52,961 bases of DNA, from NCBI GenBank assembly GCA_038203255.1, contig JBBREE010000003.1, positions 1-52,961 of the forward strand. Direction: 5' to 3'. The notes beneath the pieces were generated by a model, which worked only from the letters and a program-made list of their open reading frames with translations, was not told where the DNA came from and ran no database searches. The translations under genes were made by a program, and so were the position numbers. Of the stretch, positions 17,458 through 50,046 are shown piece by piece (position 1 is the first letter of the stretch; each line of letters begins with the position of its first letter). This DNA is from Candidatus Moraniibacteriota bacterium. GTDB taxonomy: Bacteria; Patescibacteriota; Minisyncoccia; Moranbacterales; UBA2206.

Positions 17458-17640
17458 GGAAGTTTAATTTTGATTATTTGACAAGATAGCACTGTGGAAG
17501 TAGTGACGACTATTGTAAAATTGTGATTTCCGGTATTTTCAGTATCAGTTTGTTATCATTGCAGCAAAGGAGTTTACACTTTATGGATAAGAAAGTGAGC
17601 TTAAAATATCATCAACTATCAGTAATTTTTGGATAAAAAT

Positions 17641-18402
17641 ATGATAAAAAAAGCATTTTTAAAAGACTTTTTTTTAGTTCTGTTATATCCGGCGGGTATT
17701 TTATTGTTTCTCGTTTTTCTTTTTGCCGTTGCTTACTATACCGATTTCATTCCGCACAACCATTATGTCAAAGGCGATATTAATAACATTGTTTACGCCG
17801 AACCGACTCAGGAAGCGAAGGATTTCGATGTAGAAGGGTTTGTTAATTCTCTTCCGAGCGTAGAATATAAAAAAGTAGATTATCCAATTAAAGAAACACA
17901 CACTTACGAATTCAATGGCTATGTCCTGACAGTGGATATTCCAGAAGGGTTTGATGTGTATGAGCTGGAGCATAAGCCTGAAGTTATTAATTCGACTAGT
18001 ATCGAAGATTCGTGTGAATATATAGGTGGCATGAGTACTTATTGTGATGGGCCAGAAGGAGGTATATTCAAGGGAGCATTTGAGCAATCTGGTAGTATAT
18101 TGTGTATAGATAGCGGAGATAAATCTTGCGGAGCTGATGGCGTTAGAATATGGCCATACAAATCAAAATATAAGGGGATCAGCTTGCGAGATGTATATAT
18201 GCGCAGCTCGGGATATAAACAGACTAAATATGTTTTAAATGATATATTTTTTGCAGGAACCTCTAACGAGTACAACTCTTCCATGGGAGCACTTATCTCA
18301 GATCAGCAAGGAATTGGCGTATCTTCCGGCTTCTATTCCTCTAATTTTTCCAAAGATCTCTACTTTAGCATACTAGATTCCATAAAAATCAGAAAAAAAT
18401 AA
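17641..18402 (+). CDS. Membrane-anchored PsbP/DcrB-like protein (cassette 1 partner)
   Basis: N-terminal TM; TYEFNGYVLTVDIPEGF; C-terminal ILDSIKI; paralog of 20201..20974; fold assignment is inference. Confidence 0.6.
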   Translation: MIKKAFLKDFFLVLLYPAGILLFLVFLFAVAYYTDFIPHNHYVKGDINNIVYAEPTQEAKDFDVEGFVNSLPSVEYKKVDYPIKETHTYEFNGYVLTVDIPEGFDVYELEHKPEVINSTSIEDSCEYIGGMSTYCDGPEGGIFKGAFEQSGSILCIDSGDKSCGADGVRIWPYKSKYKGISLRDVYMRSSGYKQTKYVLNDIFFAGTSNEYNSSMGALISDQQGIGVSSGFYSSNFSKDLYFSILDSIKIRKK

Positions 18403-18475
18403 GCAAAAATATTCTTACTGCAGCACGCAAAATGGTTCGATAATTAAGATAAATTTTTTAAACAACAATGAATTT

Positions 18476-18862
18476 ATGCAAAAAGAAGATATAAAAAAGA
18501 TTAAAAAGAAAACAATAACGCTAGCGGGTATATTTTTAGTGCTGGGTATTTTGGTTGTTTTTGGTCTCGCCTTATATTTATCCTTTGGTTTTATGGCTAG
18601 ATACGGGAACAAAAAAAATATGAGAGATAGACAGACTTATGGTTATTTAATTTCTGGCAGAGGGTGTAATGATATGACAGACGCTTCAGATGGTGAATTA
18701 AGGAAATATATTAAAGAGGATATCCTGAGCGAGATTAGCAAAAAAAAATTCAAGAGCATATTGACAGAAGAAAAAGAAATATATGAAAGGGGAGGAACTG
18801 GTAAAAATGACAGTTGTTATATTATGATTGATCGTGTTAGTAAAATTATTGATGGTATGTAG
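18476..18862 (+). CDS. Single-TM hypothetical protein
   Basis: Basic N-terminus, TM, small domain with two Cys; no counterpart in cassette 2. Confidence 0.65.
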   Translation: MQKEDIKKIKKKTITLAGIFLVLGILVVFGLALYLSFGFMARYGNKKNMRDRQTYGYLISGRGCNDMTDASDGELRKYIKEDILSEISKKKFKSILTEEKEIYERGGTGKNDSCYIMIDRVSKIIDGM

Positions 18863-18903
18863 ACACTTTTAATCGTTGTATATATAGAAAAGTTTGGCAA
18901 GGG

Positions 18904-18928
18904 GATCTTTAACAATTAAATAAAGGAG
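18904..18928 (+). promoter_or_regulatory. boxA-like motif plus Shine-Dalgarno
   Basis: GATCTTTAACAATT (18904-18917) resembles rrn boxA TGCTCTTTAACA; AAGGAG at 18923-18928. Confidence 0.55.
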
Positions 18929-18934
18929 AATGAG

Positions 18935-20158
18935 ATGGCTAAAAAGATGGTGTTTTGGATTGTATTATTTATTGCTTTGGGGACTTTTTCGCGAGTAGCT
19001 TTGGCTGATGTAGGGTCCTGCGTAGAATGCAGCGGCCTGATGGACGGTGCTTGTCTGGCAGAAAAATATCTTCCTTTTAATCAATTTAACACAGACTCGA
19101 GTTCTGAGCGAGAGTGGTCAGCTTTCGAGGGAAATTTTTTTGCCAAAGATAATATGATCGGCGTTCGTTTCAGATTAGACGATGAATCAAAGAGAACGCT
19201 TAATCAAGGAGGGCTTGGATTAGAGGTTGAAATTATTGAAAAAGGCGGGCATAAGTTGAATTGGGGTCTCCTTATTCACAATCTACCTAGCAACGCTAGG
19301 ATTACGGATGATACAAGGGCACTTGATAATGGAGGAGATACCGTAAATGCGGTTTTAATTCGTAACCCGGAGAAGCTTAGTGTGGGAAAGGATTATTATA
19401 TCTGGTTTATTTTTAGGGATTCAATTCCTAAAGAAGGGGTTACAATTCAGCCGAATATAGTTATTGATATTCACACTAGTTGTTCTGATTTTGATTTTAT
19501 TTGTTTAGATGTAAATGATCCAGAAGCATGCGAGTATTTTGAGATGGAGACGGACTCATTTAGGCCGTTCGTCGCTTATCCAGATAGTAGAGAAGGCGTA
19601 ATATGGAATAATAAAAAATCAAGTGAGAAATATACTCCCAACCTTCAAGAAGTTAATGGGTTTTGGTATGTTTCTTATAATATGAATCCATCCAATCTAG
19701 GAGGTATATATTATATTGCAACAAAAGATGAATCGGGTGCTGTTGTGAGCGCATATAACCCTCAAAGTTCCGAAGACTCCGAAACCGACCCCGGAACATC
19801 ATCCGGAGACTATGGCAAAGTAACCATGTCCACACCAAGCAGTTCCTCTTCAAAATCGGAACTCTACGTCAAAGAACTGAAATTCAAAGACGAAAAGACC
19901 AAATATTATGACGATGAAACAGGCCATGCTTATGCCACAGCCAAAAATGTCGGGATAGACGCGCCCGACACGGACATTAAGATTAAACTTTTCCGCTTCA
20001 AAGGTGAAACTGAAAACGGAGACACGAAAGAGGTGGGAAGTGAGAACATTAGAGGAACGAATCTAAAATCTGGCGACAGCAAGGAAGAAGGATTTTCATT
20101 CGGCGCTCCAGATGACACTCGTAAATTTGATGTGTCAGTTGACATTTTCCTGCATTAA
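18935..20158 (+). CDS. Secreted Cys-rich protein with C-terminally truncated CARDB-like constant region
   Basis: Signal peptide (..VALA-DV); unique N-domain; Ser-rich linker and domain nearly identical to 21066..22841, ending ~180 aa earlier. Confidence 0.75.
   Translation: MAKKMVFWIVLFIALGTFSRVALADVGSCVECSGLMDGACLAEKYLPFNQFNTDSSSEREWSAFEGNFFAKDNMIGVRFRLDDESKRTLNQGGLGLEVEIIEKGGHKLNWGLLIHNLPSNARITDDTRALDNGGDTVNAVLIRNPEKLSVGKDYYIWFIFRDSIPKEGVTIQPNIVIDIHTSCSDFDFICLDVNDPEACEYFEMETDSFRPFVAYPDSREGVIWNNKKSSEKYTPNLQEVNGFWYVSYNMNPSNLGGIYYIATKDESGAVVSAYNPQSSEDSETDPGTSSGDYGKVTMSTPSSSSSKSELYVKELKFKDEKTKYYDDETGHAYATAKNVGIDAPDTDIKIKLFRFKGETENGDTKEVGSENIRGTNLKSGDSKEEGFSFGAPDDTRKFDVSVDIFLH
19770..20078 (+). 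repeat. Constant-region direct repeat, copy 1 (partner 21994-22302)
   Basis: Core 19824-20078 vs 22048-22302: 7 mismatches in 255 bp by manual count. Confidence 0.95.
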
Positions 20159-20167
20159 ATCTAAAAT
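20139..20167 (+). promoter_or_regulatory. sigma70 promoter of cassette 2, overlapping the end of the truncated gene
   Basis: TTGACA (20139-20144), 17 bp, TAAAAT (20162-20167). Confidence 0.75.
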
Positions 20168-20200
20168 ATCATCAATGATCAGTAATTTTTGAATAAAACT

Positions 20201-20974
20201 ATGACAAAAAAAGCATTTTTCAAAAGACTTTTTTTGATCCTGTTATACCCAGCAGGCGCTTTACTGTTCCTTGTAGTTCTTTTCGCTATTGCATATTATT
20301 CGGATTTCATCCCGCATAATCACTACGCAAAGGGTGATATTAATGACATTATTTACGCCGAACCGACTCAGGAAGCGAAGGATTTCGATGTGGAAAAATA
20401 CATAGATAGTCTCCCGAGCGTGGAATACAAACATATCGATTACCCTATCAAGGAAACTTATACTTACGAATTTAATAATTATATTTTAACAGTCGATATA
20501 CCGGAAGGGTTTAAAGCTTATGAATTTAAATTGGCAGGTAATCCGAGAGTAATAGACTCTACGAATATTGAGGATTCGTGTGACAGGCCTGGCGCAAGAA
20601 GTTTATGTACTGGGCCGAAAGACGGGATATTCAAGGGCTCTACAGTGTTTCCGGATAAGCTTCTTTGTATCGGTAAAAATAATAATATAGGAAATAATTG
20701 CAATGGTGATAGTATAAAGATAAGTCCGTATAAATCTCAGTATAAAGGCATTAGTTTGCGCGATATATATGTGAATATGCTAAGATATAATGAAGATAAA
20801 TATATTGTAAGGGGGGTGTTTTTTTCTGGATATTGCAATAATTATAATTTTTCATTGGGAACATTGCTTTCTGATCAACAAGGCCTAGGAATTTCTACAG
20901 CATCTTTTTCATCTTCATTTTCAAGAGATTTACACTTGAGCATTCTAGATTCCATCAAAATCAGAAAAAAATAA
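20201..20974 (+). CDS. Membrane-anchored PsbP/DcrB-like protein (cassette 2 partner)
   Basis: Paralog of 17641..18402 (DFIPHNHY, YAEPTQEAKDFDVE, ILDSIKIRKK identical); central loops diverged. Confidence 0.6.
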   Translation: MTKKAFFKRLFLILLYPAGALLFLVVLFAIAYYSDFIPHNHYAKGDINDIIYAEPTQEAKDFDVEKYIDSLPSVEYKHIDYPIKETYTYEFNNYILTVDIPEGFKAYEFKLAGNPRVIDSTNIEDSCDRPGARSLCTGPKDGIFKGSTVFPDKLLCIGKNNNIGNNCNGDSIKISPYKSQYKGISLRDIYVNMLRYNEDKYIVRGVFFSGYCNNYNFSLGTLLSDQQGLGISTASFSSSFSRDLHLSILDSIKIRKK

Positions 20975-21065
20975 GCAAAAAATATTTTTACTGCAGCACA
21001 CAAAATGGTTGTGTATTGCATGAGAATGTCTTTAGTCCATTAAAAACAGAATAAGGAGGCAGCAA

Positions 21066-22841
21066 ATGAAAGTGAGAATTTTGACTAGTATTTCTTTTGT
21101 AATGATATTTATGTTTTTGGCAAATATCGTTACCTACGCATCTAACCCTTCTGATTGTAGCAGTATCGATGTTAAATGTGTCAAAGATCAATTTGGTCTT
21201 AGTACGATTAATAAGGCTATTGATCCTTGGACTCCCGAAAAAGGCGCTGTTCTTTTTTACGGAGAAAGCAGAATATTTACGGCTTATCTATATTTTGATG
21301 GAACAGCTAAAACATTCTACGAAAACAATCCTTGGGCTGGTTTTGAGATTGATATCAATTTCCAAGGCATTAATAACTACACTATTCCCAGAATTGACCC
21401 GGATTCCGTAGCTGGCCCATCAGGAACAGATCCTTTGAGGGATACGATTATCGGAGACTGGAGCACCGCTACACGCGGGATAACCGTCACGCACCCATCT
21501 TCCCTGAAAGAGGGTTGGAATGTTTTTAGTTTCCAGTTGAAAGATGATTTCTTTGTTGATTTGGGCAATAATGTTCCCATTAAGGCTAACATCCAATTGG
21601 TTGCTAATGTTGCCAGTTCAAGTTTTATAAACACATTAACAGAAAGGAATGATTTTAGTTGGGTCGCCGAGTGGCTTTATAGATGGATTGTCATTGGTGA
21701 AATTGGAAACGTAGGGTCGCTTAGAGGCGAAGTATTTCGGTATTTTACGATGGATAATTTTCAGCAGGCATTGAGCGGAGATAATCCAGTTAATATTACC
21801 TCGTCTGACCAATGGCAGGGTCTCTGCTGGAATAGCTCTGATCCGGATATCTCCGCAAAAGAATGTGACTCGTCAAACTTTGTAGCTTTGATGAACGCGT
21901 CTTCTCAACCTCAAGACAACTCTCAAAAGCAGAATCTAGAGGGATTTATTGGACCGGTTCTAAATACCGGCGGAGGATATAATCCTCCTAATCCCGAAGC
22001 CTCCGAAACTGACCCTGGACAAACTAGTGGGGACTACGGCAAAGTCACCATGTCCACACCAAGCAGTTCCTCTTCAAAACCGGAACTCTACGTCAAAGAA
22101 CTGAAATTCAAAGACGAAAAGACCAAATATTATGACGATGAAACCGGCCATGCTTATGCCACAGCGAAAAACGTCGGGATAGACGCGCCTGACACGGACA
22201 TTAAGATTAAACTTTTCCGCTTCAAAGGTGAAACTGAAAACGGAGACACGAAAGAAGTGGGAAGTGAGAACATCAGAGGAACGAATCTAAAATCTGGCGA
22301 CACTAAACAAGAAGAATTTGATTTCAGTATTCCGGATGACGAAGGAGTCTATCCATACTACGCGGTCATTGATACAAGTGGTGCAGTTTCTGAAGCCAAT
22401 GAAAACAATAATCGCTTGGGCAATATCCGTCTCAGGGTGCATCATCGGCCAGACATCCATGTTAGTGAATTGACTTTAGATGACGGGCGAGCTCAATTTG
22501 ATCAACAAGAATTTGTCAAAGGCAAAGTAACAGTCACTAATACCGGTGGAGAACCCTTTATTGATGTGCCGGTTCATTGGTATCTCGACGGCAAGCATAT
22601 CGGAGACGATAATATGCGACACTGGAACATTGAGAATGGAGACGAAAAACACGAAGATATTTACGTTCTCATTCCAATTGTCATCGGAACTCACACATTT
22701 AAAGCCTGTGCCGAACTGGACGCTGATCGTGATCAAAGGGATAATTGTAAGCAAATTACTTTTCAGGTTGTTGAATCTTCACCAGCTCCAAGTTCTCAAA
22801 TGAGCTTAATAGCTCCTGTCGATTTCAAGATTGTTGAATGA
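21066..22841 (+). CDS. Secreted protein: variable N-domain + Ser-rich linker + two CARDB/Ig-like domains (full-length member)
   Basis: Signal peptide; AVIDTSGAVSEANENNN and RPDIHV..VTNTG..GTHTFKACA..DNC CARDB-type motifs; SD AAGGAGG at 21053-21059. Confidence 0.8.
   Translation: MKVRILTSISFVMIFMFLANIVTYASNPSDCSSIDVKCVKDQFGLSTINKAIDPWTPEKGAVLFYGESRIFTAYLYFDGTAKTFYENNPWAGFEIDINFQGINNYTIPRIDPDSVAGPSGTDPLRDTIIGDWSTATRGITVTHPSSLKEGWNVFSFQLKDDFFVDLGNNVPIKANIQLVANVASSSFINTLTERNDFSWVAEWLYRWIVIGEIGNVGSLRGEVFRYFTMDNFQQALSGDNPVNITSSDQWQGLCWNSSDPDISAKECDSSNFVALMNASSQPQDNSQKQNLEGFIGPVLNTGGGYNPPNPEASETDPGQTSGDYGKVTMSTPSSSSSKPELYVKELKFKDEKTKYYDDETGHAYATAKNVGIDAPDTDIKIKLFRFKGETENGDTKEVGSENIRGTNLKSGDTKQEEFDFSIPDDEGVYPYYAVIDTSGAVSEANENNNRLGNIRLRVHHRPDIHVSELTLDDGRAQFDQQEFVKGKVTVTNTGGEPFIDVPVHWYLDGKHIGDDNMRHWNIENGDEKHEDIYVLIPIVIGTHTFKACAELDADRDQRDNCKQITFQVVESSPAPSSQMSLIAPVDFKIVE
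21994..22302 (+). repeat. Constant-region direct repeat, copy 2
   Basis: Offset 2224 bp from copy 1. Confidence 0.95.
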
Positions 22842-22855
22842 AACCTTTTTTCAAG

Positions 22856-22893
22856 AAACGCTCCTGCCTGAATAAGCTGGAGTGTTTTTATTT
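22856..22893 (+). terminator. Intrinsic terminator closing island 1
   Basis: AAACGCTCCTGC...GCTGGAGTGTTT followed by T tract. Confidence 0.6.
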
Positions 22894-22909
22894 TGTAAAA
22901 ATCATGATC

Positions 22910-22938
22910 TTGGAAAAAGATTGTAGTTGTGCTATTAT
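22910..22938 (+). promoter_or_regulatory. sigma70 promoter for scpAB
   Basis: TTGGAA, 17 bp, extended TGcTATTAT. Confidence 0.6.
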
Positions 22939-22967
22939 ATGGGGAGTAAAATAAATTCTACCCGGAT

Positions 22968-23675
22968 ATGGCTTATAACGTGAAATTGGAAAAATTTGAG
23001 GGCCCGATGGAGCTTCTTTTGGAGTTGATTAATAAGGAAAAATTAGATATCACGGAACTCAGTCTTTCCAAAGTGACGGATGAATTCTTGGAACATATTA
23101 GAAACAATGAAAACATCCATTTGGAACATCTAGCTGATTTTTTGACAGTGGCGGCGCGCCTCATTCTTATCAAATCCAAAGCTATTTTACCGATGCTCAA
23201 ATTCAGTGAAGAAGAAGAGGAGGAAATTAAGGATTTAACATATCAATTAGCAGAATATAAAAAATTCAAAGAAGCCTCTTTAAAGTTGGGCGCGATGGCG
23301 GAAGAGCGTCATATTTGTTATTCGAGGGAAGGTTTTATCGGTGTTGCGCCGGTTTTCTATCCGCCGGAAGATTTGAATGCGTATGATCTTAAAAAATATT
23401 TCTTATCCGTACTTTCTGAGATTCCGATTGTCGAAAGATTGGAAGAAGAAATTGTTTCCGAAGTGATAACCTTGGAAGAGCGTATTAATGATTTAGAGAC
23501 AATGCTGAGGGAAAAAGTTCAATCATCCTTTTCCTCTTTAGTGGAAAAAGCGAAGGATAAGGTGGACGTGATCATCTCTTTTTTGGCGATGTTGGAAATG
23601 GTAAAGCAAAGGATTATAATGGTAGATCAAAAAGAATTATTTGAAGAAATACAATTAAGTATGAAAAATCAATAA
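22968..23675 (+). CDS. scpA: Segregation and condensation protein A (kleisin)
   Basis: FEGPMELLLELI, IKSKAILP, SFLAMLEMVK. Confidence 0.95.
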   Translation: MAYNVKLEKFEGPMELLLELINKEKLDITELSLSKVTDEFLEHIRNNENIHLEHLADFLTVAARLILIKSKAILPMLKFSEEEEEEIKDLTYQLAEYKKFKEASLKLGAMAEERHICYSREGFIGVAPVFYPPEDLNAYDLKKYFLSVLSEIPIVERLEEEIVSEVITLEERINDLETMLREKVQSSFSSLVEKAKDKVDVIISFLAMLEMVKQRIIMVDQKELFEEIQLSMKNQ

Positions 23676-23684
23676 TTATATTTT

Positions 23685-24227: not shown

Positions 24228-24243
24228 TTTAAAATTTTTTCAG

Positions 24244-25281: not shown

Positions 25282-25285
25282 TTTT

Positions 25286-41797: not shown

Positions 41798-41838
41798 TTT
41801 ACCGCGTGCTGAGTGAATTTCAATTGAATAATCTTATC

Positions 41839-41962: not shown

Positions 41963-42011
41963 AACCCACTAGCGCAAAAAATTTTCAACAAAAATTTTGC
42001 GGGGTTGGGTT
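41963..42011. repeat. Imperfect inverted repeat
   Basis: AACCCACTAGCGCAAAAAATTTT ... AAAATTTTGCGGGGTTGGGTT. Confidence 0.65.
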
Positions 42012-42020
42012 GATAAGCTG

Positions 42021-42273
42021 TATGGGAGGAGTTAACGGATTTTTTGCGCCTTATGCGTATTTGGGGATGATATATCTTTCAATACTTTTATTAATGAGTT
42101 TGAGTGCGGGCATGTTATTGGGAAAAATCATTAATAAAAAATGGACAGCTCCTTTAGTTGTTATGGCGAGTTGTGTAATTATTTATATTTTTGATTTAAA
42201 TGTTAGTTCTTCGGTGATTACAGCATTTGTTGTTTCCGTCGCGTACTTCTATTTTTTCAGGAAAAAAAGGTAA
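42021..42273 (+). CDS. Small membrane protein (~3 TM), start uncertain
   Basis: Hydrophobic ORF 42010..42273, probable ATG near 42022; 18 bp before the hydrolase gene. Confidence 0.55.
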
Positions 42274-42291
42274 TAATTAATAATTAAAAAA

Positions 42292-44790
42292 ATGAAAGAA
42301 AATAAAATATCACACCAATATTTATATATTCTAGTAATTTTTATTGCACTCGTTGCGTCCATAATCCCAATAGATTTTCAAGGCATAGAAAATTATTCCA
42401 AAGCCGAAGAAATATCTAATCTAGAAATAGCTAAAGACAGCACTGTTGTATGGGATAGCAACCAAAACATCAATGGAACAGTTACAATTAAATATGGAGG
42501 TACACTTATCATTAAAAACGGAGTAACTATAAGCTTTGGTCAACTCTCCCACATTGTTGTTAATGGCAAACTCTTTGTTAATGGCACAGTAAAAAACCCA
42601 ATTTATTTCAAGCGCGCCGACCCTAATTTTGGATATTCCATTTGGATTAATCAAGGGGGAAAGGCGCTTATAAAAAATGCCGATGTCAGTGGAGCAGGAA
42701 CGCAGATTTATCAAGTCAGATCTAATGTACCTTTTGTAAATACAGCTTATGCCGGAACTTATCATGGAGGCTTCTCAGTTAACGGCGGAGAATTGGAAAT
42801 TCAGGGTTCGAAAATTCACAACAGTAAATATGGGATAGGAATTGAATATGGCGCAGATCCGGAAAAGGTGATTGTGCAAAGATCTTCCTTTATTAACAAT
42901 GAAACAAATGTCTACAATGACAGCATAGAGATTCAATATGCTGATAAATATGCCAACTTTAAATATAATTGGTGGGAAAGCGCCGATGGACCAACGCATA
43001 CTTGCGAGGGTAGTTATTGCTATTATGAAAAGATGTATGGGAAAATAGATTTTTCCAATTGGCGAGTAACAGAAGATTTTCATGACCCGGTGATTATTGT
43101 GCCGGGAATTTTAGGATCATGGAAATTAACAGATAACGGAGATTGGAAGATGGATCCAATTTTTAAAGCATACGATTCTTTAATAAATACGTTTAAGGAT
43201 AATGGATACGAAGAGGGCAAGGATTTATTCCTTCTCCCTTATCAATGGAGAGCTGACAACATAGATACGGCTGGTATACTGCAAGAAAAAATTCGAAAAA
43301 TTAAAGAAGATAATAATTGGCCGAAAGTTGACGTCGTGGCTCATTCAATGGGTGGATTAGTGGCGAGGCAATATATTGAATCCAATGATTATCAAAATGA
43401 CATTGACCAATTGATAATGCTTGGGACACCTAATGAAGGATCTCCTGAAAATTATTTAACGTGGGCGGGTGGAGAATTGTCCGCCAGTAAGTTTGATGTT
43501 GTTGGAATAATATTAAATAAGATTTTCAAACAAGAAGCCAAAGAAAATGGTTCTGACAATATCTTTGAGTATCTTCATAACAAACCAATTAAATCAATCC
43601 AAGAATTACTCGCCACTTCTAATTATCTTTATGACACAAATTCTAACAAAGTGCGTTCCTATCAAGAGGGGGATTTTTATCCAAAAAATGATTTTATTGA
43701 CAATCTTAATCTTTCTGAAAATTTACAGAAACTAAATAAGGTTTCTTTGATAAATATAGTTGGCAAGCTAGATAAAAGCACGACGATAAATGAAATAAAA
43801 GTTGGCAAACCTTCAATAGATGCAACTTCACAATGGGCTTACGGAGAACCAATTAAAAATGGATTGACATATTCCGAAGGAGATGGCACTGTTCCTTTAA
43901 ATTCTGCTGAAGGAGTGTCCTCTGACGAGCAGATAGAAATAAATTCTGCCCATATGCAATTACCAGGAGAGGCTCAAGACATTGTGTATAAATCTATAAC
44001 AGGATATCTTCCGCAGAAAAAAATTCCTCTTGCTGGAATTAACCAAAGACTTTTCTTTTTTGCTCTTTCTCTCATCGATATCCAAATCATCGCGCCAGAT
44101 GGAGTACATTGGATTGGGAAGAATATTAAAAATCTGAAAGACGAAGATCAAATTGAAGGAGCATTTTACACCGGAAGTGAAACTGAAAATGAATTTGTTA
44201 GTATTCCCAATCCAGAGCCGGGAGAATATACGGTTGTGAGGCAGGGCACGGGAAATGGAGAATATACGGTTGAGATGAGTAATATCCAAGAGGCGCAAGA
44301 TGGCTCTGGGCAAGCGTCCGAATCCACCACAGCCATCACAGGAAACACTTCCGAGGGAAAAGAAGAAGAATCAAATGTAAAAGTTAGTAGTCTGATTATG
44401 AATGATGAAAACACTGCTGGGACAAACGATGACAGTAGCGATGACGACAGTGAGCATAGTAATAAAAGTAAGAAGAAAAAAAGCACCTCATCATCAGATA
44501 TTTCATCAGCTTCCGGAACAACTGAAAATTCCCTGATCCTGGAAAAATGGAACATTGATCAAAAACTTTTTCCCAATAAAAACGTGAGTAATTTTAATAT
44601 AAATAAGGAGGATGAGAAGGGAGAAACGCTTGACGCAAAAAATCCAATCGATCAAAATGGAAGAGGGAATACTTTTTTCTGGCGCATTACTGTTGGTTTT
44701 TTAGTTGTACTGGCAGTACTTTTAGGCAGAAGGATATATCTTCGACGACGCAAAAATAATTCAGCATTTAATTCAGGAATTAATTCATGA
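42292..44790 (+). CDS. Surface-anchored alpha/beta hydrolase (LCAT/PGAP1-like lipase/acyltransferase) with N-terminal beta-helix-like region
   Basis: N-terminal signal/TM; PVIIVPGILGS, YQWR, VAHSMGG, LGTPNEGS, GDGTVP, later His; Ser/Asp/Lys linker; C-terminal TM + RRRK. Confidence 0.82.
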   Translation: MKENKISHQYLYILVIFIALVASIIPIDFQGIENYSKAEEISNLEIAKDSTVVWDSNQNINGTVTIKYGGTLIIKNGVTISFGQLSHIVVNGKLFVNGTVKNPIYFKRADPNFGYSIWINQGGKALIKNADVSGAGTQIYQVRSNVPFVNTAYAGTYHGGFSVNGGELEIQGSKIHNSKYGIGIEYGADPEKVIVQRSSFINNETNVYNDSIEIQYADKYANFKYNWWESADGPTHTCEGSYCYYEKMYGKIDFSNWRVTEDFHDPVIIVPGILGSWKLTDNGDWKMDPIFKAYDSLINTFKDNGYEEGKDLFLLPYQWRADNIDTAGILQEKIRKIKEDNNWPKVDVVAHSMGGLVARQYIESNDYQNDIDQLIMLGTPNEGSPENYLTWAGGELSASKFDVVGIILNKIFKQEAKENGSDNIFEYLHNKPIKSIQELLATSNYLYDTNSNKVRSYQEGDFYPKNDFIDNLNLSENLQKLNKVSLINIVGKLDKSTTINEIKVGKPSIDATSQWAYGEPIKNGLTYSEGDGTVPLNSAEGVSSDEQIEINSAHMQLPGEAQDIVYKSITGYLPQKKIPLAGINQRLFFFALSLIDIQIIAPDGVHWIGKNIKNLKDEDQIEGAFYTGSETENEFVSIPNPEPGEYTVVRQGTGNGEYTVEMSNIQEAQDGSGQASESTTAITGNTSEGKEEESNVKVSSLIMNDENTAGTNDDSSDDDSEHSNKSKKKKSTSSSDISSASGTTENSLILEKWNIDQKLFPNKNVSNFNINKEDEKGETLDAKNPIDQNGRGNTFFWRITVGFLVVLAVLLGRRIYLRRRKNNSAFNSGINS

Positions 44791-44793
44791 ATT
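44758..44793. repeat. 12-bp tandem repeat (AATTCAGGAATT-like)x3 spanning the stop codon
   Basis: AATTCAGCATTT AATTCAGGAATT AATTCATGAATT. Confidence 0.8.
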
Positions 44794-44855
44794 AAAATAT
44801 TAAAAACAAAAACCCCATCGGCAAAAAAGTTCCTCAAACAAGAAAAAAGCCGGTT

Positions 44856-44896
44856 TTAGCTCAGGCATTGACAAACCTGAGTTAATCATATAACAT
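44856..44896 (+). promoter_or_regulatory. rpsP promoter with inverted repeat around the -35 box
   Basis: TTGACA (44868-44873), 17 bp, TAACAT; arms TTAGCTCAGG / CCTGAGTTAA. Confidence 0.65.
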
Positions 44897-44945
44897 AGAT
44901 GAGTAACTGATTTTATCCGAGTTAGCTTGGATTTTTATTAATATT

Positions 44946-45380
44946 ATGTTGACTATTAGATTTGCGAGAGTTGGTAAGAAGAATAAGGCACAATACAAAA
45001 TTGCCTTGCAAGAAAAAACAGCGGCTCCAGGAGGAAGACACGTGGAAATTTTGGGTTCTCATGACCCACACCTTAAAGCTACCGTTTTGAAAGAGGATCG
45101 CATTAAATATTGGCTTTCTAAGGGAGCGCAGGCATCTGATACCGTGCATAATCTTTTAGTGAGCAAAGGGCTTATCACTGACAAAAAGCGAGTAGTTAAG
45201 GTTCCGGCTAAGAAAGTAGAGGAAGTACCAGTCGAGGCTGTAACAGCTGAAGTTAAACCTGAGGCGGAAGTTAAGGTTGAAGAAAAGGTTGAAGAAAAAA
45301 AAGAAGAAGCTCCTAAAGAAGAAGTTAAGACCGAAGAAAAGAAAGAAGAAGCTCCTAAAGAAGAAATTAAAGCAGAATAA
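44946..45380 (+). CDS. rpsP: 30S ribosomal protein S16 with long Glu/Lys-rich C-terminal tail
   Basis: MLTIRFARVGKK, EILGSHDP, IKYWLSKGAQASDTV; 42-bp duplication 45291-45374. Confidence 0.95.
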   Translation: MLTIRFARVGKKNKAQYKIALQEKTAAPGGRHVEILGSHDPHLKATVLKEDRIKYWLSKGAQASDTVHNLLVSKGLITDKKRVVKVPAKKVEEVPVEAVTAEVKPEAEVKVEEKVEEKKEEAPKEEVKTEEKKEEAPKEEIKAE

Positions 45381-45403
45381 TTGAAAATTTTATAGATAAT
45401 ATT

Positions 45404-45502
45404 TTCCGCAGAAAGTGAGCATAAAAGTAAGCCTCACCTAGGAAATGAAAAAGTTTAAAACTTTTCATTTTGGTCGACTGCGGAAACGCAGTTTTTATTT
45501 TT
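45404..45502 (+). promoter_or_regulatory. Putative L10 leader / attenuator of rplJL
   Basis: TTCCGCAG (45404-45411) pairs with CTGCGGAA (45478-45485); overlapping terminator ACTGCG-GAAA-CGCAGT-TTTT. Confidence 0.7.
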
Positions 45503-45515
45503 ATCAAATAAATTT

Positions 45516-46034
45516 ATGCAGACAAAAGCACAGAAAAAAGAATTAGTAAAAAATCTCACCGAAAGTCTGAAAAATTCGAAAGCCGTGGTGTTTTCCGATT
45601 TTAAAGGACTGAAAGTGAAAGATATGACCGAGCTTCGCAGTCAATTGCGAGAAAAAGGTGTCGATATGAAAGTGTTTAAGAAAACTCTTTTGACCATCGC
45701 CCTAAAAGACGCCGGCGTGGAATTGGACGCGAACAAGTTTAAGGGTCAAATCGCAGTAGCAGTGGCTCGTGAAGATGAGGTGGAGGCAGCCAAGATCATT
45801 GCGAAGATGGCTAAAGCCAATGACAATCTGAAAATCGTGGGAGGTCTTATTGGAAAAAATATTTTGTCAGACGAAGAAGTGAAGGCTTTGGCAAAACTAC
45901 CAAGCAAGGAAGAAATGTTGGCCAAGTTGGTCGGAACCTTGAATGCTCCAATTTCCGGATTTGTCAATGTGCTGGCTGGAAATTTGCGCGGATTGGTGCA
46001 GGTTTTAAAAGCAGTAGCAGAATCAAAAAATTAA
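45516..46034 (+). CDS. rplJ: 50S ribosomal protein L10
   Basis: DFKGLKV, LRSQLR, KVFKKTL, LAKLPSKEEMLAKL. Confidence 0.97.
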   Translation: MQTKAQKKELVKNLTESLKNSKAVVFSDFKGLKVKDMTELRSQLREKGVDMKVFKKTLLTIALKDAGVELDANKFKGQIAVAVAREDEVEAAKIIAKMAKANDNLKIVGGLIGKNILSDEEVKALAKLPSKEEMLAKLVGTLNAPISGFVNVLAGNLRGLVQVLKAVAESKN

Positions 46035-46065
46035 GTAATAAGTAAATAAGTAATAAATCAAACAT

Positions 46066-46473
46066 ATGGCAGAAGAAAAAAAAGAAGCAGTAGAAGTACC
46101 GGAAAAATTTAAGAAACTAGTGGAAGAAGTGGAAAAAATGAGCGTTTTGGATTTATCCGAGCTCGTGAAAGTGCTTGAAGAAAAATTTGGTGTTTCCGCC
46201 GCCGCCCCAATGATGATGGGAGCTGCTCCTGCTGCTGAAGCTGGTGCCGCCGTGGAGGAAAAGAGCGAATTTGATGTGGAAGTGACCGCTTGTGGTGCTT
46301 CTAAAATCAATGTTATTAAAGCTGTGCGAGAAATTACCGGACTTGGCTTGAAAGATGCTAAAGATCTAGTAGACGCCGCTCCAAAGGTTATCAAAGAAAA
46401 GGTTTCTAAGGAAGAAGCTGATACTATGAAAAAGAAATTGGAAGAAGCTGGTGCAACTGTAACTTTGAAATAA
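46066..46473 (+). CDS. rplL: 50S ribosomal protein L7/L12
   Basis: [50 protein letters not shown]. Confidence 0.98.
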
Positions 46474-46496
46474 TTTTTTTTGAGAAGAAGTTCACG

Positions 46497-46524
46497 AAAA
46501 AACCGCCTGAGGGCGGTTTTTTTT
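46497..46524 (+). terminator. Intrinsic (bidirectional) terminator after rplL
   Basis: AAAAAACCGCC-tgag-GGCGGTTTTTTTT. Confidence 0.85.
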
Positions 46525-46577
46525 GTTCTGAAGATGATCGTCAAAAATTCTAAGCGAGCGCGTAAGCCCCAATCTCT

Positions 46578-46826
46578 TTACGCTAAATCTTTCTTCATTC
46601 TCTCAAAATCTTCTTTGGTGATTTCGCCTTTGGCGTAGCGTTCTTTGAGGATGGACATAGAGTCGTCTTCCTTGTTATTATGGTGGCATCCTCCCGGGCC
46701 ACAATTGTGCCAGGTGCGACCACGCATAACGGCGACAATGAGCCAAATGATGACCACCCAAAAAATTATATTCAATATCCAACCAAAACCAAACATTCCG
46801 CCATAACCATAATATTGTCCCATCAT
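46578..46826 (-). CDS. SHOCT-domain membrane protein
   Basis: MMGQYYGYGGMFGFGW-TM; ILKERYAKGEITKEDFERMKKDL; start moved to ATG 46826. Confidence 0.88.
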   Translation of the reverse strand: MMGQYYGYGGMFGFGWILNIIFWVVIIWLIVAVMRGRTWHNCGPGGCHHNNKEDDSMSILKERYAKGEITKEDFERMKKDLA

Positions 46827-46890
46827 ATTTTTGAAGTTAGTTATTATTATACTATACGTAATACTGATATCGGGGATAAAAATTTCCATG

Positions 46891-46937
46891 ATAAAAATAC
46901 CTATGTCCGTACCTACGCACGTAGGTACGAGTGTAAT
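46891..46937. repeat. 47-bp direct repeat, left copy (island 2 boundary)
   Basis: ATAAAAATACCTATGTCCGTACCTACGCACGTAGGTACGAGTGTAAT; 1 mismatch to 50000-50046. Confidence 0.95.
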
Positions 46938-46957
46938 TTTCTAAGAGGAATTATTGG

Positions 46958-47004
46958 TTTGACCTTTATTCAAGCCTGTGATAATATGTGGTAGGCTCGA
47001 ATAA
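46958..47004 (+). promoter_or_regulatory. Cassette-head promoter/palindrome, copy a
   Basis: TTGACC, 17 bp, TGaTAATAT; arms TTATTCAAGCCT / AGGCTCGAATAA enclose the -10; repeated at 48012-48058. Confidence 0.75.
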
Positions 47005-47025
47005 AAGTAAAATTTATAAGAGAAA

Positions 47026-47664
47026 ATGAGCAAAAAAAGAACGATTGTTATTATTGCAGTCATAGTCATGGTTGTTATAACTATAGGTATTTTTGTGTTG
47101 CAAAAAAGATCAAAAATTACCGTTAATCAAAATAAAGCGCGACAATTAATTAAATTGGGCGATGAAAATGCGGACTGGCAGTTATTTAGTGATGATAGTA
47201 TTGGAATTAGTGTAAAAATTCCAATGAACTGGGAGAGAAAAATATCAAGCAGTAGTGATAAGAGTATTATTGGGGGATTTATTGCTGATAGAAAAGGAGC
47301 TCTCCCGATTAGTGATGAATATACTCCACATGGTGTTGCTGGTGGAGATTATAGTTTTACTGTTATGGCCCGTGATAACAAATCTGATGAGGCTAAAAAT
47401 TTTGAAAACTACCTAAATAATCCAGATAAATATTTGTCTAAAGTTTCCTTTGGCAACAAGGTTATTCTTCAAGATGGGACCGTAGCACTTAGGAATGTCA
47501 TAGAGGGTCCTGGAAAAACTTTTAATGAACAAAGAGGCAATAATATAACCTATGCTTTTGAAAAGAATAATAAATATTATGAAGTTTATATTGTGTATGA
47601 TGGAAATGGAATGTCTAGTGGGATGGGAGAAGAAATTCTTTCAACTTTGAAATTCACAAAGTAA
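47026..47664 (+). CDS. Membrane-anchored PsbP-like protein
   Basis: N-terminal TM; DWQLFSDDSIGISVKIPMNW; C-terminal EEILSTLKF. Confidence 0.7.
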   Translation: MSKKRTIVIIAVIVMVVITIGIFVLQKRSKITVNQNKARQLIKLGDENADWQLFSDDSIGISVKIPMNWERKISSSSDKSIIGGFIADRKGALPISDEYTPHGVAGGDYSFTVMARDNKSDEAKNFENYLNNPDKYLSKVSFGNKVILQDGTVALRNVIEGPGKTFNEQRGNNITYAFEKNNKYYEVYIVYDGNGMSSGMGEEILSTLKFTK

Positions 47665-47766
47665 TTTAGATTCAAGATTGAATGTCTATTTCTATTTTTT
47701 CAAACAGGATGATCTGAAAGAAATCAGTATTTGCAAATAAAACCAAAGAATCAATAGGAGGTCAAA

Positions 47767-48045
47767 ATGAAGTTTCTCAAGATTGGTATTCTAGCGATTT
47801 TTCTCAGTCTTTCAGCTTTGGCAAGTTTTGCCTTAGCCGGAGGATGTGGAAGTCTAATTTACATCGACGATGGCAGTGGAGGTAGTAGTTCCGGAAGCAG
47901 TTCCGACACTTGGAAAAACGAACCTGCCTATGTCCCAATCACAGACAGCACAAGTAGTTCCGGCGGCAAACCGGATTTTATTGTGAAAGAAATATGCATC
48001 AAGCACAAAAATTTGACCTTTATTCAAGCCTATGATATTATATGA
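47767..48045 (+). pseudogene. Secreted CARDB-family gene truncated at the start of the constant domain
   Basis: SD, signal peptide; homology to 49536..50000 ends at KPDFIV (47985); the rest reads through the next cassette promoter. Confidence 0.7.
47887..47985 (+). repeat. 99-bp linker/constant repeat (partner 49659-49757)
   Basis: Encodes SSGSSSDTWKNEPAYVP-x5-SSSGGKPDFIV; nearly identical except a ~15-bp patch. Confidence 0.92.
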
Positions 48046-48058
48046 TAGGCTAGAATAA
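48012..48058 (+). promoter_or_regulatory. Cassette-head promoter/palindrome, copy b
   Basis: TTGACC, 17 bp, TGaTATTAT; arms TTATTCAAGCCTAT / ATAGGCTAGAATAA. Confidence 0.75.
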
Positions 48059-48068
48059 GAGCTAATTA

Positions 48069-48665
48069 ATGTTAAGAAATATGAACAAGAAAAAAATTAT
48101 TATTATTTCAGTTGTTGTTTTGGCTGTACTCGCTATCGGAGCGGGATTTTTGGGGTGGAAGAAAAGTGAGATTAAGAAGCAGGAAGCGGTTAGAATGCAA
48201 CAAGAACAGGTAAAGAAACAACAGGATGAATTAGGAAAGCAGATGGTAGAAGTTGATACGAGTGATTGGAAGACGTATAGGAATTATGAGCATGGGTTTA
48301 AGATAAGATATCCGAAAAATATTGCTGTTACTGATTTTACTACAGAGAGTATCGTTTTTAAGGACAAAGAAATCGGTCATTGGGCATATGGATTGGATAT
48401 TGTTCCGAATAAAAATAATATAACTCTAGATGATATTGATGACATAAAAAAAGAATTTAAGATTCAGGGTGATGTAAACATTGACGATATTGTGATTGAT
48501 GGTGTTTCAGCTAAAAAATTTCTATTTAAAGACTATAATGACTATGGTAATTCTAATATATTTTTGATATATAAAAATTTTATTATACGTATCGCGGGAG
48601 ATGAGGCGCATGGAAATGATAAGGAATATTATGCTTTCGTGAATAGTTTAAAATTCGACAAATAG
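48069..48665 (+). CDS. Membrane-anchored PsbP-like protein
   Basis: N-terminal TM, coiled-coil, VDTSDWKTYRNYEHGFKIRYP, IDGVSA, C-terminal FVNSLKF; start may be 48081. Confidence 0.75.
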   Translation: MLRNMNKKKIIIISVVVLAVLAIGAGFLGWKKSEIKKQEAVRMQQEQVKKQQDELGKQMVEVDTSDWKTYRNYEHGFKIRYPKNIAVTDFTTESIVFKDKEIGHWAYGLDIVPNKNNITLDDIDDIKKEFKIQGDVNIDDIVIDGVSAKKFLFKDYNDYGNSNIFLIYKNFIIRIAGDEAHGNDKEYYAFVNSLKFDK

Positions 48666-48686
48666 AATTTAATATATAGTAATATT

Positions 48687-48736
48687 GGCTCTTTAACAAT
48701 AAAATATAAAAGGAGGTGATAAGTATGTCAGAATAG
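48687..48736 (+). promoter_or_regulatory. boxA-like motif, perfect SD and 3-codon mini-ORF
   Basis: GGCTCTTTAACAAT (48687-48700); AGGAGGTGAT (48711-48720); ATG TCA GAA TAG (48725-48736). Confidence 0.6.
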
Positions 48737-48804
48737 AAAGTACGCAGTTAATTGGCTAGTGTGTGGATGTAAGTAATCTTAAATTTTTCTGAGGAGGACA
48801 TAAA

Positions 48805-49509
48805 ATGACTTGCTTTAAGCGATTAATGGGTATAATGTCAATTGTTATACTTATACTTGTTTCATTCTCCAATCTTGCAGTATCTGCGCAGACATTCACA
48901 TGCACTAAAGGAGTATTTCGTGATAGCATAGGAAAAAACAAAGGAGATGTTGATGGTCAGTGTGTTATGTATGTTAGATATGAAACAGGCATATTATCTA
49001 GCGGATGTAATGGTGAGGCTTGGAGATGTTATCAGGAGGCTATTACTGCTGGATATACCGTAGGGCAAAAACCAAGAAAATCAGCAATTGTTGTTTTCAA
49101 TAAGGTAGGTACTGGCGCTCTCTCTGTTGGGCACGTCGGTATTGTTAAATCGGTTGATGGTAATAAAATACTTATTAGGGATTCCAATTGGGTTGCTCCT
49201 TACACTGTCGGAGAACATCAGGAGGATATTACCGAGCGTGATATTTTAGGCTATATCTACTGCGACGGGAAATCAGAAGAAAGTCAAACTGAAAAAATCC
49301 CTTTCCGTCTCTTGTTCAACTTGGCCTGGTACCCAGCAGATAAGACGTGCGTCAATGCAGAGAAGTGGATCCTGTCAGGTTCGAATGGACCGGAAACTTT
49401 CACTTCAAACGGCGTATGCTACTCTCAGTTCAGCAGTTTGGATTATGCATGGTGGTGGGATATTGTTTTCGGCTCAGGAGATCTTACCGAAATTAACGTT
49501 TGTAAGTAG
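48805..49509 (+). CDS. Secreted CHAP-domain (Cys/His amidase) protein with additional C-terminal domain
   Basis: Signal peptide; GQCVMYVR, GYTVGQKP..AIVVF, GHVGIV, DSNW. Confidence 0.85.
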   Translation: MTCFKRLMGIMSIVILILVSFSNLAVSAQTFTCTKGVFRDSIGKNKGDVDGQCVMYVRYETGILSSGCNGEAWRCYQEAITAGYTVGQKPRKSAIVVFNKVGTGALSVGHVGIVKSVDGNKILIRDSNWVAPYTVGEHQEDITERDILGYIYCDGKSEESQTEKIPFRLLFNLAWYPADKTCVNAEKWILSGSNGPETFTSNGVCYSQFSSLDYAWWWDIVFGSGDLTEINVCK

Positions 49510-49535
49510 GATAAACTATCAAGCAGGAGGTTAAT

Positions 49536-50000
49536 ATGGGATTAGCAAGGATAGGAATTCTCGCAGCTTTTCTAGTTTTTGTTTCTATGCAAGAACTCTC
49601 TCACGCAGGAGATTGCGGAAGCATAATCTATATGGATGTCGGCAGTAATGGAAATAGCAGTTCCGGAAGCAGTTCTGACACTTGGAAAAACGAACCTGCC
49701 TATGTCCCTCCATCCGATGGGTCAAGTAGTTCCGGCGGCAAACCGGATTTTATTGTGCCCGAACTCTACGTCAAGAATCATAAAGCGGTTTTTCGTCCCG
49801 GTGAAGATATGAAAATAATGGTCCGGGTCAAAAATATCGGTAATGCGACGCCCAATCATGACGTAAAGATAAAATATTGGCGGTCGGACGGATATCAAAT
49901 TGATCCTAAAGATGATCGCAAAAAAATCGATACGGACAACATTAAAAGTAGCAATCTTGACCCTGGGGGAGTTTTTATTTTTCTCATAAATTGGCTATAA
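49536..50000 (+). pseudogene. Secreted CARDB-family gene truncated at the island boundary
   Basis: SD, signal peptide, KPDFIV..VKNIG..IKYWRS..NLDPGG then unrelated VFIFLINWL* ending at the 47-bp repeat. Confidence 0.65.
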
Positions 50001-50046
50001 TAAAAATACCTATGTCCGTACCTACGCGCGTAGGTACGAGTGTAAT
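50000..50046. repeat. 47-bp direct repeat, right copy, with perfect 22-bp palindrome
   Basis: CGTACCTACGCGCGTAGGTACG; immediately after TATAAT (49996-50001). Confidence 0.95.

Follow-up and report, generated by a model that had tools for sequence, protein, structure and literature searches.

The DNA stretch analysed here, hereafter the window, comprises 52,961 nt from a Candidatus Moraniibacteriota bacterium and corresponds to contig C3 of its 1.08-Mb draft genome of 58 contigs (the source genome, G000; further C-numbers denote its other contigs, and a name such as C19_706 gives the contig and the protein length in amino acids, aa). As had been proposed from the letters of the sequence alone (the original prediction), its open reading frames (ORFs) define two islands, at 17602-22841 and 46879-50046, that hold four cassettes with the same gene order, in which the gene of a membrane-anchored partner (A1 to A4) is followed by that of a secreted protein (S1 to S4) carrying all or part of a Ser-rich linker and CARDB region. 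The GC content of the islands (0.31-0.43) is inside the range of the window, so that no foreign composition was seen, and an Rfam scan of the window gave no structured-RNA family at gathering score.

Island 1 carries, on the forward strand, the genes A1, sm1, S1, A2 and S2 in this order. Its first unit starts with a short upstream repeat containing a TAAAAT -10-like box (17602-17628), with 37 nt 92% identical to 20162-20198, followed by A1 (17629-18402), an ORF of 257 aa with one N-terminal transmembrane (TM) helix and an extracytoplasmic domain for which a PsbP/Mog1-like fold is predicted. The A1 paralogue A2 (20189-20974; 261 aa, 62% aa identity to A1) is the partner of S2. The secreted protein of unit 1, S1 (18935-20158; 407 aa), consists of a signal peptide, an S1-type beta-sandwich head, a Ser-rich linker and a first CARDB domain from which the last strand is missing, and S2 (21066-22841; 591 aa) is full length, with a signal peptide, an S2-type head, a Ser-rich linker and two CARDB domains. 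The statement that only the gene at 21066 has a complete constant region proved correct, S2 being the sole complete CARDB protein in the window (PF07705, 45.4 bits in two stretches, cut-off 22.7). As Pfam gives no CARDB match for S1, nor for S3 of island 2, the CARDB status of both rests on their identity to S2 and S4, respectively. Between A1 and S1, the ORF sm1 (18476-18862) encodes a small TM-anchored protein of 128 aa present in unit 1 only, with no Pfam match and no paralogue in the genome. A common family for sm1 and C19_194, a partner protein described below, was rejected, their local alignment score being that of the shuffle mean (z -0.1).

Direct repeats had been reported within both islands, and these were recovered, far above chance. 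In island 1, a 300-nt repeat (19753-20052 vs. 21977-22276) is 92% identical and a repeat of the unit starts (17602-17901 vs. 20162-20461) 78% identical; island 2 has a promoter-like repeat at 88% identity and a 59-nt pair. No further copy of any of them was found anywhere in the 1.08-Mb assembly. The constant-region stub of S1 (linker plus CARDB start, 19751-20116, forward strand), a tract of recombination or conversion, matches 21975-22340 of S2, with 88.5% aa identity over 122 residues and 89% at the nucleotide level, and includes a core (19831-20078) of ~97% nucleotide identity with perfect runs of 65 and 64 nt. The near-identity that had been claimed for this region within each island therefore applies to island 1 and not to island 2, where S3 and S4 share 55% aa identity (83% nucleotide identity over 127 nt). 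Likewise, a promoter-like element had been seen upstream of each cassette: consensus matches are present before A2 (20139-20167, forward strand; TTGACA-17-TAAAAT, 11/12, a consensus match only), A3 and A4, but only a weak one (9/12) before A1, and the count of promoter-like sites in total is not above that of shuffles.

Read-level data from three public runs of one study, in the form of Logan contigs with a depth of ~3-7, allowed the truncation of S1 to be considered as a possible assembly chimera. An independently built contig of one run (record 5, 20034-20290) bridges the S1/A2 junction with 0 mismatches and therefore argues against a chimera, at this depth and with a run that may be the source sample.

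Island 2 carries A3, S3, A4, a CHAP gene and S4, also on the forward strand, between two 59-nt direct repeats (46879-46937 and 49988-50046, 90% identical). To its left, a membrane protein labelled as SHOCT-domain by sequence reading (ORF at 46578-46889, reverse strand) lies within DNA inserted between rplL and znuA. Promoter-like repeat 1 (46958-47007, forward strand) precedes A3 and is 88% identical to promoter-like repeat 2 (48012-48061, forward strand) before A4; the first includes TTGACC-17-TAATAT with a TG, i.e. an extended -10 element (46959-46987), and the second TTGACC-17 with an extended -10 (48013-48041). Both partners are TM-anchored and PsbP_2-like, A3 (47026-47664; 212 aa) just below threshold (PF18933, 26.4 bits vs. 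a cut-off of 27) and A4 (48069-48665; 198 aa) weakly so (15.5 bits, E 0.018). The secreted proteins S3 (47767-48045; 92 aa) and S4 (49536-50000; 154 aa) consist of a signal peptide, a Ser-rich linker and the start of CARDB, without an N-domain. Only the first CARDB residues are present in S3, and ~85 in S4, which is cut at the right 59-nt repeat and whose CARDB score of 13.6 bits is below the gathering cut-off of 22.7; the search for longer homologues of S4 found none, which is weak evidence. Between A4 and S4, 48805-49509 encodes a predicted secreted CHAP-domain peptidoglycan hydrolase of 234 aa (PF05257, 48 bits, cut-off 26), in which Pfam recognises no targeting domain and whose visible Cys and His motifs are presumably catalytic, as in its family.

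A near-perfect 22-nt palindrome, CGTACCTACGC(A/G)CGTAGGTACG, lies inside the 59-nt repeat at 46908-46929 (as a hairpin) and at 50017-50038. It is unique in the genome and absent from the relatives, and its candidate roles are those of a terminator hairpin, an operator or a recombination site. The 59-nt repeat was considered as an attachment (att) site and discarded, given that the repeat is absent from the relatives, with no empty copy there, and that the insertion also includes the SHOCT gene left of the repeat.

The partners of the two islands had been described as PsbP-like anchors. This applies to A3 and A4 at sub-threshold scores and to A1 by its predicted fold, but Pfam gives nothing for A1 and A2, and two families are involved. 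The A1 family is rare (eight proteins, including A1 and A2). An AF2 model of A1 (predicted local distance difference test, pLDDT, 79.4) matched BT_1490 (Z 8.6), the immunity proteins TplEi (Z 8.5, root-mean-square deviation, rmsd, 3.1 over 119 residues) and Tsi3 (Z 7.2, rmsd 3.7, 108 residues), the cyanobacterial PsbP 2xb3 (Z 7.2, rmsd 3.4, 122 residues), LpqN (Z 6.8), Mog1 5yfg (Z 5.7), DcrB (Z 4.8) and SciW (Z 4.0), the upper rows being mostly PsbP/Mog1-type and related envelope proteins. As these Z-scores are middling, a PsbP/Mog1-like fold class is likely, not certain, for the modelled A1. An Atlas search with A2 returned mostly unnamed clusters, with a Mog1p-type family at rank 22 as a lead only. 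That the A1 family and the anchors of island 2 are homologous in sequence was rejected, with pairwise scores in the shuffle range (z -0.4 to 2.2); profile comparison by hhalign gave 58% over 78 columns, covering the TM helix and first strands only. Thus, the anchors of the two islands are different families, whose common ground is the PsbP/Mog1-like fold class and short motifs, namely TY..F/N...(I/Y)P near the first strands and a C-terminal hydrophobic-x-S-x-K-F/I. The A1-family partner at locus L029 is a lipoprotein and not TM-anchored, thus confirming that the partner is outside the membrane. A complex prediction for the S2 head (residues 26-292) with the A2 ectodomain (42-257) gave a score of 0.01 and a mark of 0.32 in a run without controls, and counts neither way.

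The N-domains of island 1 had been taken as unrelated. They are instead remote homologues (hhalign probability 92%, E 6e-7, 181 columns), and the S1 head is 30% identical to that of C19_706 (E 7e-20). A profile of the heads matched 78 representative clusters at E <=1e-3 among 1.84 billion proteins, the best stretch mostly starting near the protein N-terminus, and found 0 matches in other genomes among 400 sampled from the class. In 72 head sequences, three of which were supplied as head-only pieces, Pfam detected CARDB in 27, PKD in three, fn3 in two and dockerin in one. By these profile matches, the S1 and S2 heads are one rare, patchy family; the head of the C52 protein described below, tried as the same domain, showed only weak similarity (hhalign E 0.003 at 10.6% and E 0.054 at 1.0%) and was not accepted. 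A model of the S2 head (pLDDT 87; predicted template modelling score, pTM, 0.83) matched only generic pilin/adhesin/cohesin-like sandwiches, with a best Foldseek E of 1.1e-3 (SpaA) and a best VIA Z of 6.2, for which reason the modelled S2-type head is read as a putative binding head; an ESM Atlas search with it gave no usable match. Several head proteins of other Patescibacteria (L029, 1091-1783 and 4743-6338; L017, 754-2520; P0010; P0011) share a C-terminal tail (e.g. ...PCPGLDYDTCMAAIMVILD, ...AAIMHYYF) that is absent from S2 and may be a sorting or partner signal, and in L017 and L029 the head proteins are followed by a small secreted protein of ~107-128 aa.

Further loci of the source genome were located by tblastn and ORF listing and assigned with Pfam. 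The combination of a variable N-terminal module and an upstream partner on a constant linker/CARDB scaffold, as originally proposed, recurs at three of them (C19, C46 and C52) and in relatives. On C19, a gene for a 167-aa protein is followed by those of a TM protein (194 aa) and of a 706-aa protein combining an S1-type head with CARDB; C46 encodes a 171-aa cytoplasmic protein, of which the former 167-aa protein is a paralogue, a 197-aa A4-like anchor and a 673-aa M23+CARDB protein. On C52, two multi-TM paralogues of 128 and 146 aa alternate with an N-terminal fragment of 118 aa, which follows the first, and a protein of 723 aa, which follows the second and is composed of head, Ser-rich linker, CARDB and dockerin. 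The 723-aa protein (L023, C52 1825-3996) ends in a type I dockerin (PF00404, 35.6 bits), on which the weak resemblance of the S2 head to cohesins may have a bearing.

Partner and secreted genes also co-occur elsewhere, in the genome, in relatives and on metagenomic contigs, as the pairing suggested for each cassette would lead one to expect. In the source genome, four of the five PsbP_2-like genes adjoin a gene for a secreted CHAP or M23 protein: A4 with the island-2 CHAP gene, C46_197 with the gene of the M23+CARDB protein, the 230-aa anchor C8_230 with that of a 418-aa CHAP protein, to which it is convergent, and C5_225 with that of an M23 protein at the contig end, also convergent. A4 is similar to C8_230 (E 4e-14) and C46_197 (E 7e-11), its paralogues adjoining hydrolases on C8, C46 and C5. 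No PsbP_2-like neighbour was present for the housekeeping-type hydrolases C1_240 (TM-anchored M23) and C6_385 (CHAP, with LysM by sequence reading). Among 40 relatives, 6 of 32 PsbP_2 matches were <1 kb from a CHAP or M23 match, as read by eye (G002:C11, G034:C15, G014:C1, G020:C9, G019:C5 and G009:C36; four of these six loci were then inspected). The C8 pair has its orthologue in G002. In G020 and G009 the gene after the anchor encodes a CHAP protein, and in G019 an M23 protein of 850 aa that matches CARDB weakly. In G008, a TM-anchored DKNYY protein precedes a 741-aa CHAP+CARDB protein, and the CHAP+CARDB protein of G005, of 610 aa, shares 45% identity with S2 in the constant region. The anchor-CHAP pair of G009:C36 (1-1122; L037) adjoins two opposite-strand ORFs that look, by eye, like the parts of a split large serine recombinase and may point to a mobile setting.

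The metagenomic loci of the A1 family were retrieved by a scan with the partner alignment. Nine loci outside the genome were obtained, three of which end too early; in five of the six with enough downstream DNA (L017, L018, L019, L029 and L031, not L020) the next gene encodes an S2-type head protein, so that this pairing is kept across distant contigs at 35-45% identity. These comparisons showed that the partner family tracks the N-domain family. As the A1 family pairs with S2-type heads elsewhere, A1 is probably an orphan rather than the cognate partner of S1, and in this respect the proposed pairing within each cassette did not hold.

The occurrence of recombination in the constant region, which had also been suggested, was shown by comparing synonymous divergence (dS) inside and outside it. 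The constant regions of S1 and S2 have a dS of 0.30, vs. ~2.0 (saturated) for A1 and A2, and those of C19_706 and C46_673 a dS of 0.41, vs. 2.4 for the flanking genes of 167 and 171 aa; the last 11 aligned codons of S1, past the tract, are again highly diverged. Because the constant regions are far younger (0.3-0.4 vs. ~2 or more), exchange with a breakpoint at the linker took place long after the units diverged, and these sequence divergences show that the linker/CARDB region recombined or was converted between paralogues much later than the neighbouring genes diverged.

The comparison of C19 with C46 showed that segments made up of a partner and an N-domain are replaced as blocks between conserved flanks. 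The proteins C19_706 and C46_673 are 91% identical over 393 C-terminal residues, with unrelated N-domains (S1-type head vs. M23) and different upstream partners (the 194-aa TM protein vs. a PsbP_2-like one). On the left, the flanks share 72% nucleotide identity over 633 nt and their genes 66% aa identity; on the right, 91% nucleotide identity extends over 1235 nt, through the terminator. The swapped blocks of 1840 and 1673 nt, each containing the partner gene and the N-domain, have nothing in common. Similarly, in island 1 the segment formed by sm1 and the S1 head stands in place of the S2 head, sm1 thus sitting within the segment that replaces the S2-type head region, between the A-gene end with its adjacent intergenic stretch and the linker; a common 45-mer is present at the A-gene ends (18393-18437 = 20966-21010). 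A read joint from 18173 to 20976 was discarded as unreliable, with a 21-nt side and 23 foreign letters.

The truncated copies end at the boundaries of the next unit. S1 stops 3 nt before the unit-2 repeat, with the -35 box of the promoter-like site of A2 in its last codons; the reading frame of S3 enters promoter repeat 2 and has its stop within it; S4 reaches as far as the start of the right 59-nt repeat; and the head fragment C52_118, which has no constant-region stub, precedes the next partner gene, C52_146, both this fragment and the 723-aa gene being preceded by a multi-TM paralogue. As the end of each truncated copy falls precisely on the start of the following unit, these copies would be remnants of duplicative or Campbell-type insertion, the coincidence of ends being a signature that we infer for duplicative insertion.

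C52 starts and ends with the same 112 nt, a sequence that also ends C12 and starts C46. A repeat of a yqeY-like gene was seen at C12 24578-24989, at C52 1-297 and 4048-4459 and at C46 1-298, for which two copies and ~0.5 kb are implied. C52 would either be placed between these two contigs, with a direct repeat on each side, or form a circle of 4.35 kb.

The gene sets of relatives at the two sites of insertion were compared, and they differ rather than being invariant. The aspS-scpA interval, where island 1 lies, ranges from 718 to 5510 bp with different contents in six genomes: 5510 bp in the source genome, 1888 bp with an uncharacterised 276-aa ORF in G001, 3815 bp with a 1229-aa surface protein in G002, 718 bp and empty in G003, and an MFS (major facilitator superfamily) transporter in G008 (1265 bp) and G005 (2106 bp). 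At the other site, SHOCT and island 2 (~3.5 kb) are an insertion, because rplL is directly followed by znuA in G001 and G002. A query with S2 was matched in 4 of 41 genomes, the source genome included, and in none of the three same-genus genomes searched. Thus, both islands are strain-specific accessory insertions at variable sites. The secreted 1229-aa protein of G002 (L009, G002:C15, 1442-5131) has three long internal repeats and represents another surface protein in the same hotspot. In G003:C66 (L015), a duplicated rplL 3' end is located just upstream of znuA, with rplJ/rplL on another short contig, an arrangement suggesting that DNA was inserted at this rplL-znuA site too, with the gene end duplicated.

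The closest concept for these loci is the polymorphic toxin locus with orphan modules, of which, by analogy, they would work like a mirrored version. As outlined in a survey of such systems, polymorphic toxins such as CdiA, Rhs and MafB are secreted multidomain proteins with one constant and one exchangeable part, next to a small gene that varies with the exchangeable part, with diversity generated by recombination (Zhang et al., 2012; PMC3482391). The displaced partial copies with a constant stub also have their mirrored equivalent in S1 (122 residues) and S3 (linker and CARDB start), with none in C52_118. According to the same survey, PsbP/MOG1-like proteins are encoded beside toxin genes of type VI secretion systems (T6SS) (Zhang et al., 2012; PMC3482391). 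In contrast to the arrangement outlined there, with the variable part at the C-terminus, the constant part at the N-terminus and the immunity gene directly downstream, here the variable part is N-terminal, the constant part C-terminal and the partner upstream or, in some pairs, convergent; because neither the variable C-terminal tip nor the downstream immunity gene is found, the loci are not members of this class. Furthermore, the outlined toxins are exported by type V, VI or VII systems and keep a filament, Rhs or LXG trafficking region constant, whereas here there are ordinary Sec signal peptides and an Ig-like CARDB scaffold, some variable domains are non-enzymatic heads and the partner is held on the outer side of the membrane. 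The VARTIG modules of Thermococcales are an archaeal parallel in concept, described in the abstract of their report as a hypervariable Ig-domain surface protein of unknown function with co-varying neighbours and inter-genome recombination, likened to polymorphic toxins (Makarova et al., 2021; PMC8416519). In that abstract the variable Ig domain is C-terminal and the variable genes are downstream, the reverse of the bacterial loci described here, and no peptidoglycan hydrolase heads or PsbP-like partners are mentioned.

The architectures of C46_673 (M23+CARDB) and of the G005 and G008 proteins (CHAP+CARDB) match the domain order of bacteriolysins, with CARDB as a putative wall binder. These class III bacteriocins, such as lysostaphin and zoocin A, are Sec-secreted, with an N-terminal catalytic domain of M23/CHAP type, a C-terminal targeting domain and an adjacent gene for self-protection, and C46_673, the 850-aa protein of G019 and the island-2 CHAP gene fit this layout. 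Their known immunity factors are cytoplasmic FemABX-like enzymes that alter the cross-bridge, whereas here the neighbour is extracytoplasmic and PsbP-like, and no FemAB-type family was among the Pfam matches listed for the adjacent partner genes. Also unlike bacteriolysins, which target through SH3b, the proteins here carry CARDB, and the loci are arrays with truncated copies. Wall effectors of T6SS and type VII secretion systems (T7SS) provide the precedent of an envelope-degrading effector neutralised by a cognate binder outside the cytoplasmic membrane (Tse3-Tsi3, TplE-TplEi), as predicted here; TelC-TipC is a further wall-targeting effector with extracytoplasmic immunity. In contrast to these, there is no T6SS/T7SS context here, the Z-scores are middling, no sequence similarity was detected, and A1 is paired with a non-enzymatic head. 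The layout as a whole was not described in the full-text literature searched, subscription journals and supplementary files being outside its scope.

We consider that there is about an even chance that the islands are two-gene modules of an effector or adhesin and its cognate partner, evolving by cassette replacement and, for the hydrolases, immunity-like. Gene 1 would encode a small protein anchored to the membrane on its outer side (A1 family in island 1, PsbP_2-like in island 2), and gene 2 a Sec-secreted protein in which an N-terminal beta-sandwich head, CHAP amidase/peptidase or M23 peptidase is joined through the Ser-rich linker to the Ig-like CARDB scaffold. New units would arrive by tandem duplication or by Campbell-type integration of a circle carrying promoter, partner, head and stub, so that the junction would interrupt the upstream gene and spare the last one; the genes now truncated would then be displaced remnants, like the orphan modules of polymorphic toxins with the polarity reversed. 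The partner may bind its cognate N-domain outside the membrane, that of a CHAP or M23 domain being most likely an immunity-type inhibitor that would shield the wall of the producer from a hydrolase aimed at a host or competitor, and that of a non-enzymatic head possibly holding or masking it. The module family is probably involved in host or competitor interaction.

A number of points weigh against this interpretation. The binding of the partner and its immunity role are what we infer, and a shared fold shows no function, with Z values (7-8.6) in the range that the tool calls common. All four PsbP_2 (PF18933) matches of the source genome are below the cut-off of 27, which is exceeded in some relatives (e.g. 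46.7 bits in G020), and for 26 of the 32 PsbP_2 matches in relatives no hydrolase was detected nearby. Convergent orientation, and hence no co-transcription, is seen in several PsbP_2/hydrolase pairs (C8, C5, G002, G014 and G034), and the S2-type head is adhesin/pilin-like with no enzymatic hint, so that its need for an immunity partner is not obvious. The A1-family loci were found through the partner, so that the count of five out of six tests one direction only, and the related genomes are non-independent samples. Finally, a dS of 0.3-0.4 means that the exchanges are not very recent, save in the ~250-nt core, and the arrays may be incomplete in a draft of 58 contigs.

The two-gene module reading has to be weighed against the possibility that the islands are ordinary fast-evolving surface-protein paralogues with pseudogene debris, next to unrelated envelope genes. 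Both sites are indeed hotspots with unrelated cargo in relatives (the 1229-aa surface protein, the MFS transporter and the 276-aa protein), S3, S4 and C52_118 look decayed, most PsbP_2 matches of relatives lack a hydrolase neighbour as noted above, and the head family is rare and patchy. However, with ~1-3 PsbP_2 and ~3-4 hydrolase genes per 1 Mb, chance adjacency would be ~1% per gene by our own estimate, compared to the 4/5 found here and the 6/32 in relatives; the pairing of the A1 family with S2-type heads is conserved across distant metagenomic contigs, and the C19/C46 replacement moves partner and N-domain together. This explanation is thus rather unlikely. It is unlikely, though somewhat less so, that the partner is a docking anchor, i.e. 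that the membrane-tethered PsbP-like protein holds the secreted protein by its N-domain with the CARDB/dockerin end outward, the pairs co-varying like cohesin and dockerin. The secreted proteins have no C-terminal membrane or wall anchor of their own, the S2 head weakly matches cohesins and pilin domains, C52_723 ends in its dockerin, and partner and head are together in five of six outside loci; yet aiming a CHAP or M23 domain at the producer's own membrane would be an odd display, convergent and separately transcribed pairs suit a protective factor better than a stoichiometric anchor, and several immunity proteins are among the closest fold matches of the partner.

The original prediction was one of programmed switching, in which upstream cassettes serve as stores and recombination between stubs loads an N-module with its partner onto the single full-length scaffold, changing the specificity of attachment or attack. 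The stubs are direct repeats whose ~97% core, with its two long perfect runs, is enough for RecA-type recombination, the dS contrast shows exchange in the constant tract, only the last gene of island 1 is complete, and C52 is bracketed by identical 112-nt ends, as a possible 4.35-kb circle or repeat-flanked insertion. In antigenic variation from silent cassettes (pilE/pilS, vlsE), one complete expression gene likewise stands beside partial copies with constant stubs, the stores have neither promoter nor start codon and conversion is non-reciprocal. Unlike those stores, every cassette here has its own promoter-like site (consensus for A2-A4, weak for A1), start codon and signal peptide, and because of this the cassettes are not silent stores. 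The loading of stub-carrying N-modules did not find support either, since S3 and S4 have stubs without an N-domain, island 2 has no full-length scaffold, the truncated copy of C52 has no constant stub, and the stubs outside the core have diverged to a dS of 0.3. Were the direct repeats to recombine, A2 and the S2 head would be lost permanently, a one-way event and therefore no reversible switch. The deletion junctions that switching should leave were not seen, no joint linking 19753-20052 to 21977-22276 being found in the contigs of the three runs, which is weak evidence given their low depth and the dropping of rare variants. Programmed switching is therefore the less likely reading on present evidence, and in our estimation very unlikely.

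A bolder extension of the two-gene module reading, which we regard as doubtful, is a mirror-image polymorphic effector system of Patescibacteria, in which small circles or duplicated segments carrying promoter, partner/immunity gene, N-terminal effector or head and stub would enter and leave the genome through homologous recombination in the CARDB constant region or at duplicated ends of housekeeping genes (yqeY in C12/C52/C46, the rplL end in G003). Through such a system, if real, ultra-small episymbionts would need neither a dedicated recombinase nor a dedicated secretion system to exchange host-attack hydrolases and attachment heads along with self-protection.

Cultivated Patescibacteria are found attached to other microbes, and to our knowledge it is poorly understood how they breach or remodel the wall of a host without lysing themselves and how their host specificity changes. 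If the two-gene module reading is true, the loci described here would provide candidates for secreted effectors that cut the wall (CHAP, M23) and for variable binding heads, on a CARDB scaffold common to them, together with a candidate class of extracytoplasmic PsbP-like self-protection proteins, with partner and working domain moving as one block. Each hydrolase/partner pair is directly testable by expression, lysis and inhibition assays, and the reversed polarity would extend the design space of effector-immunity loci diversified by recombination.

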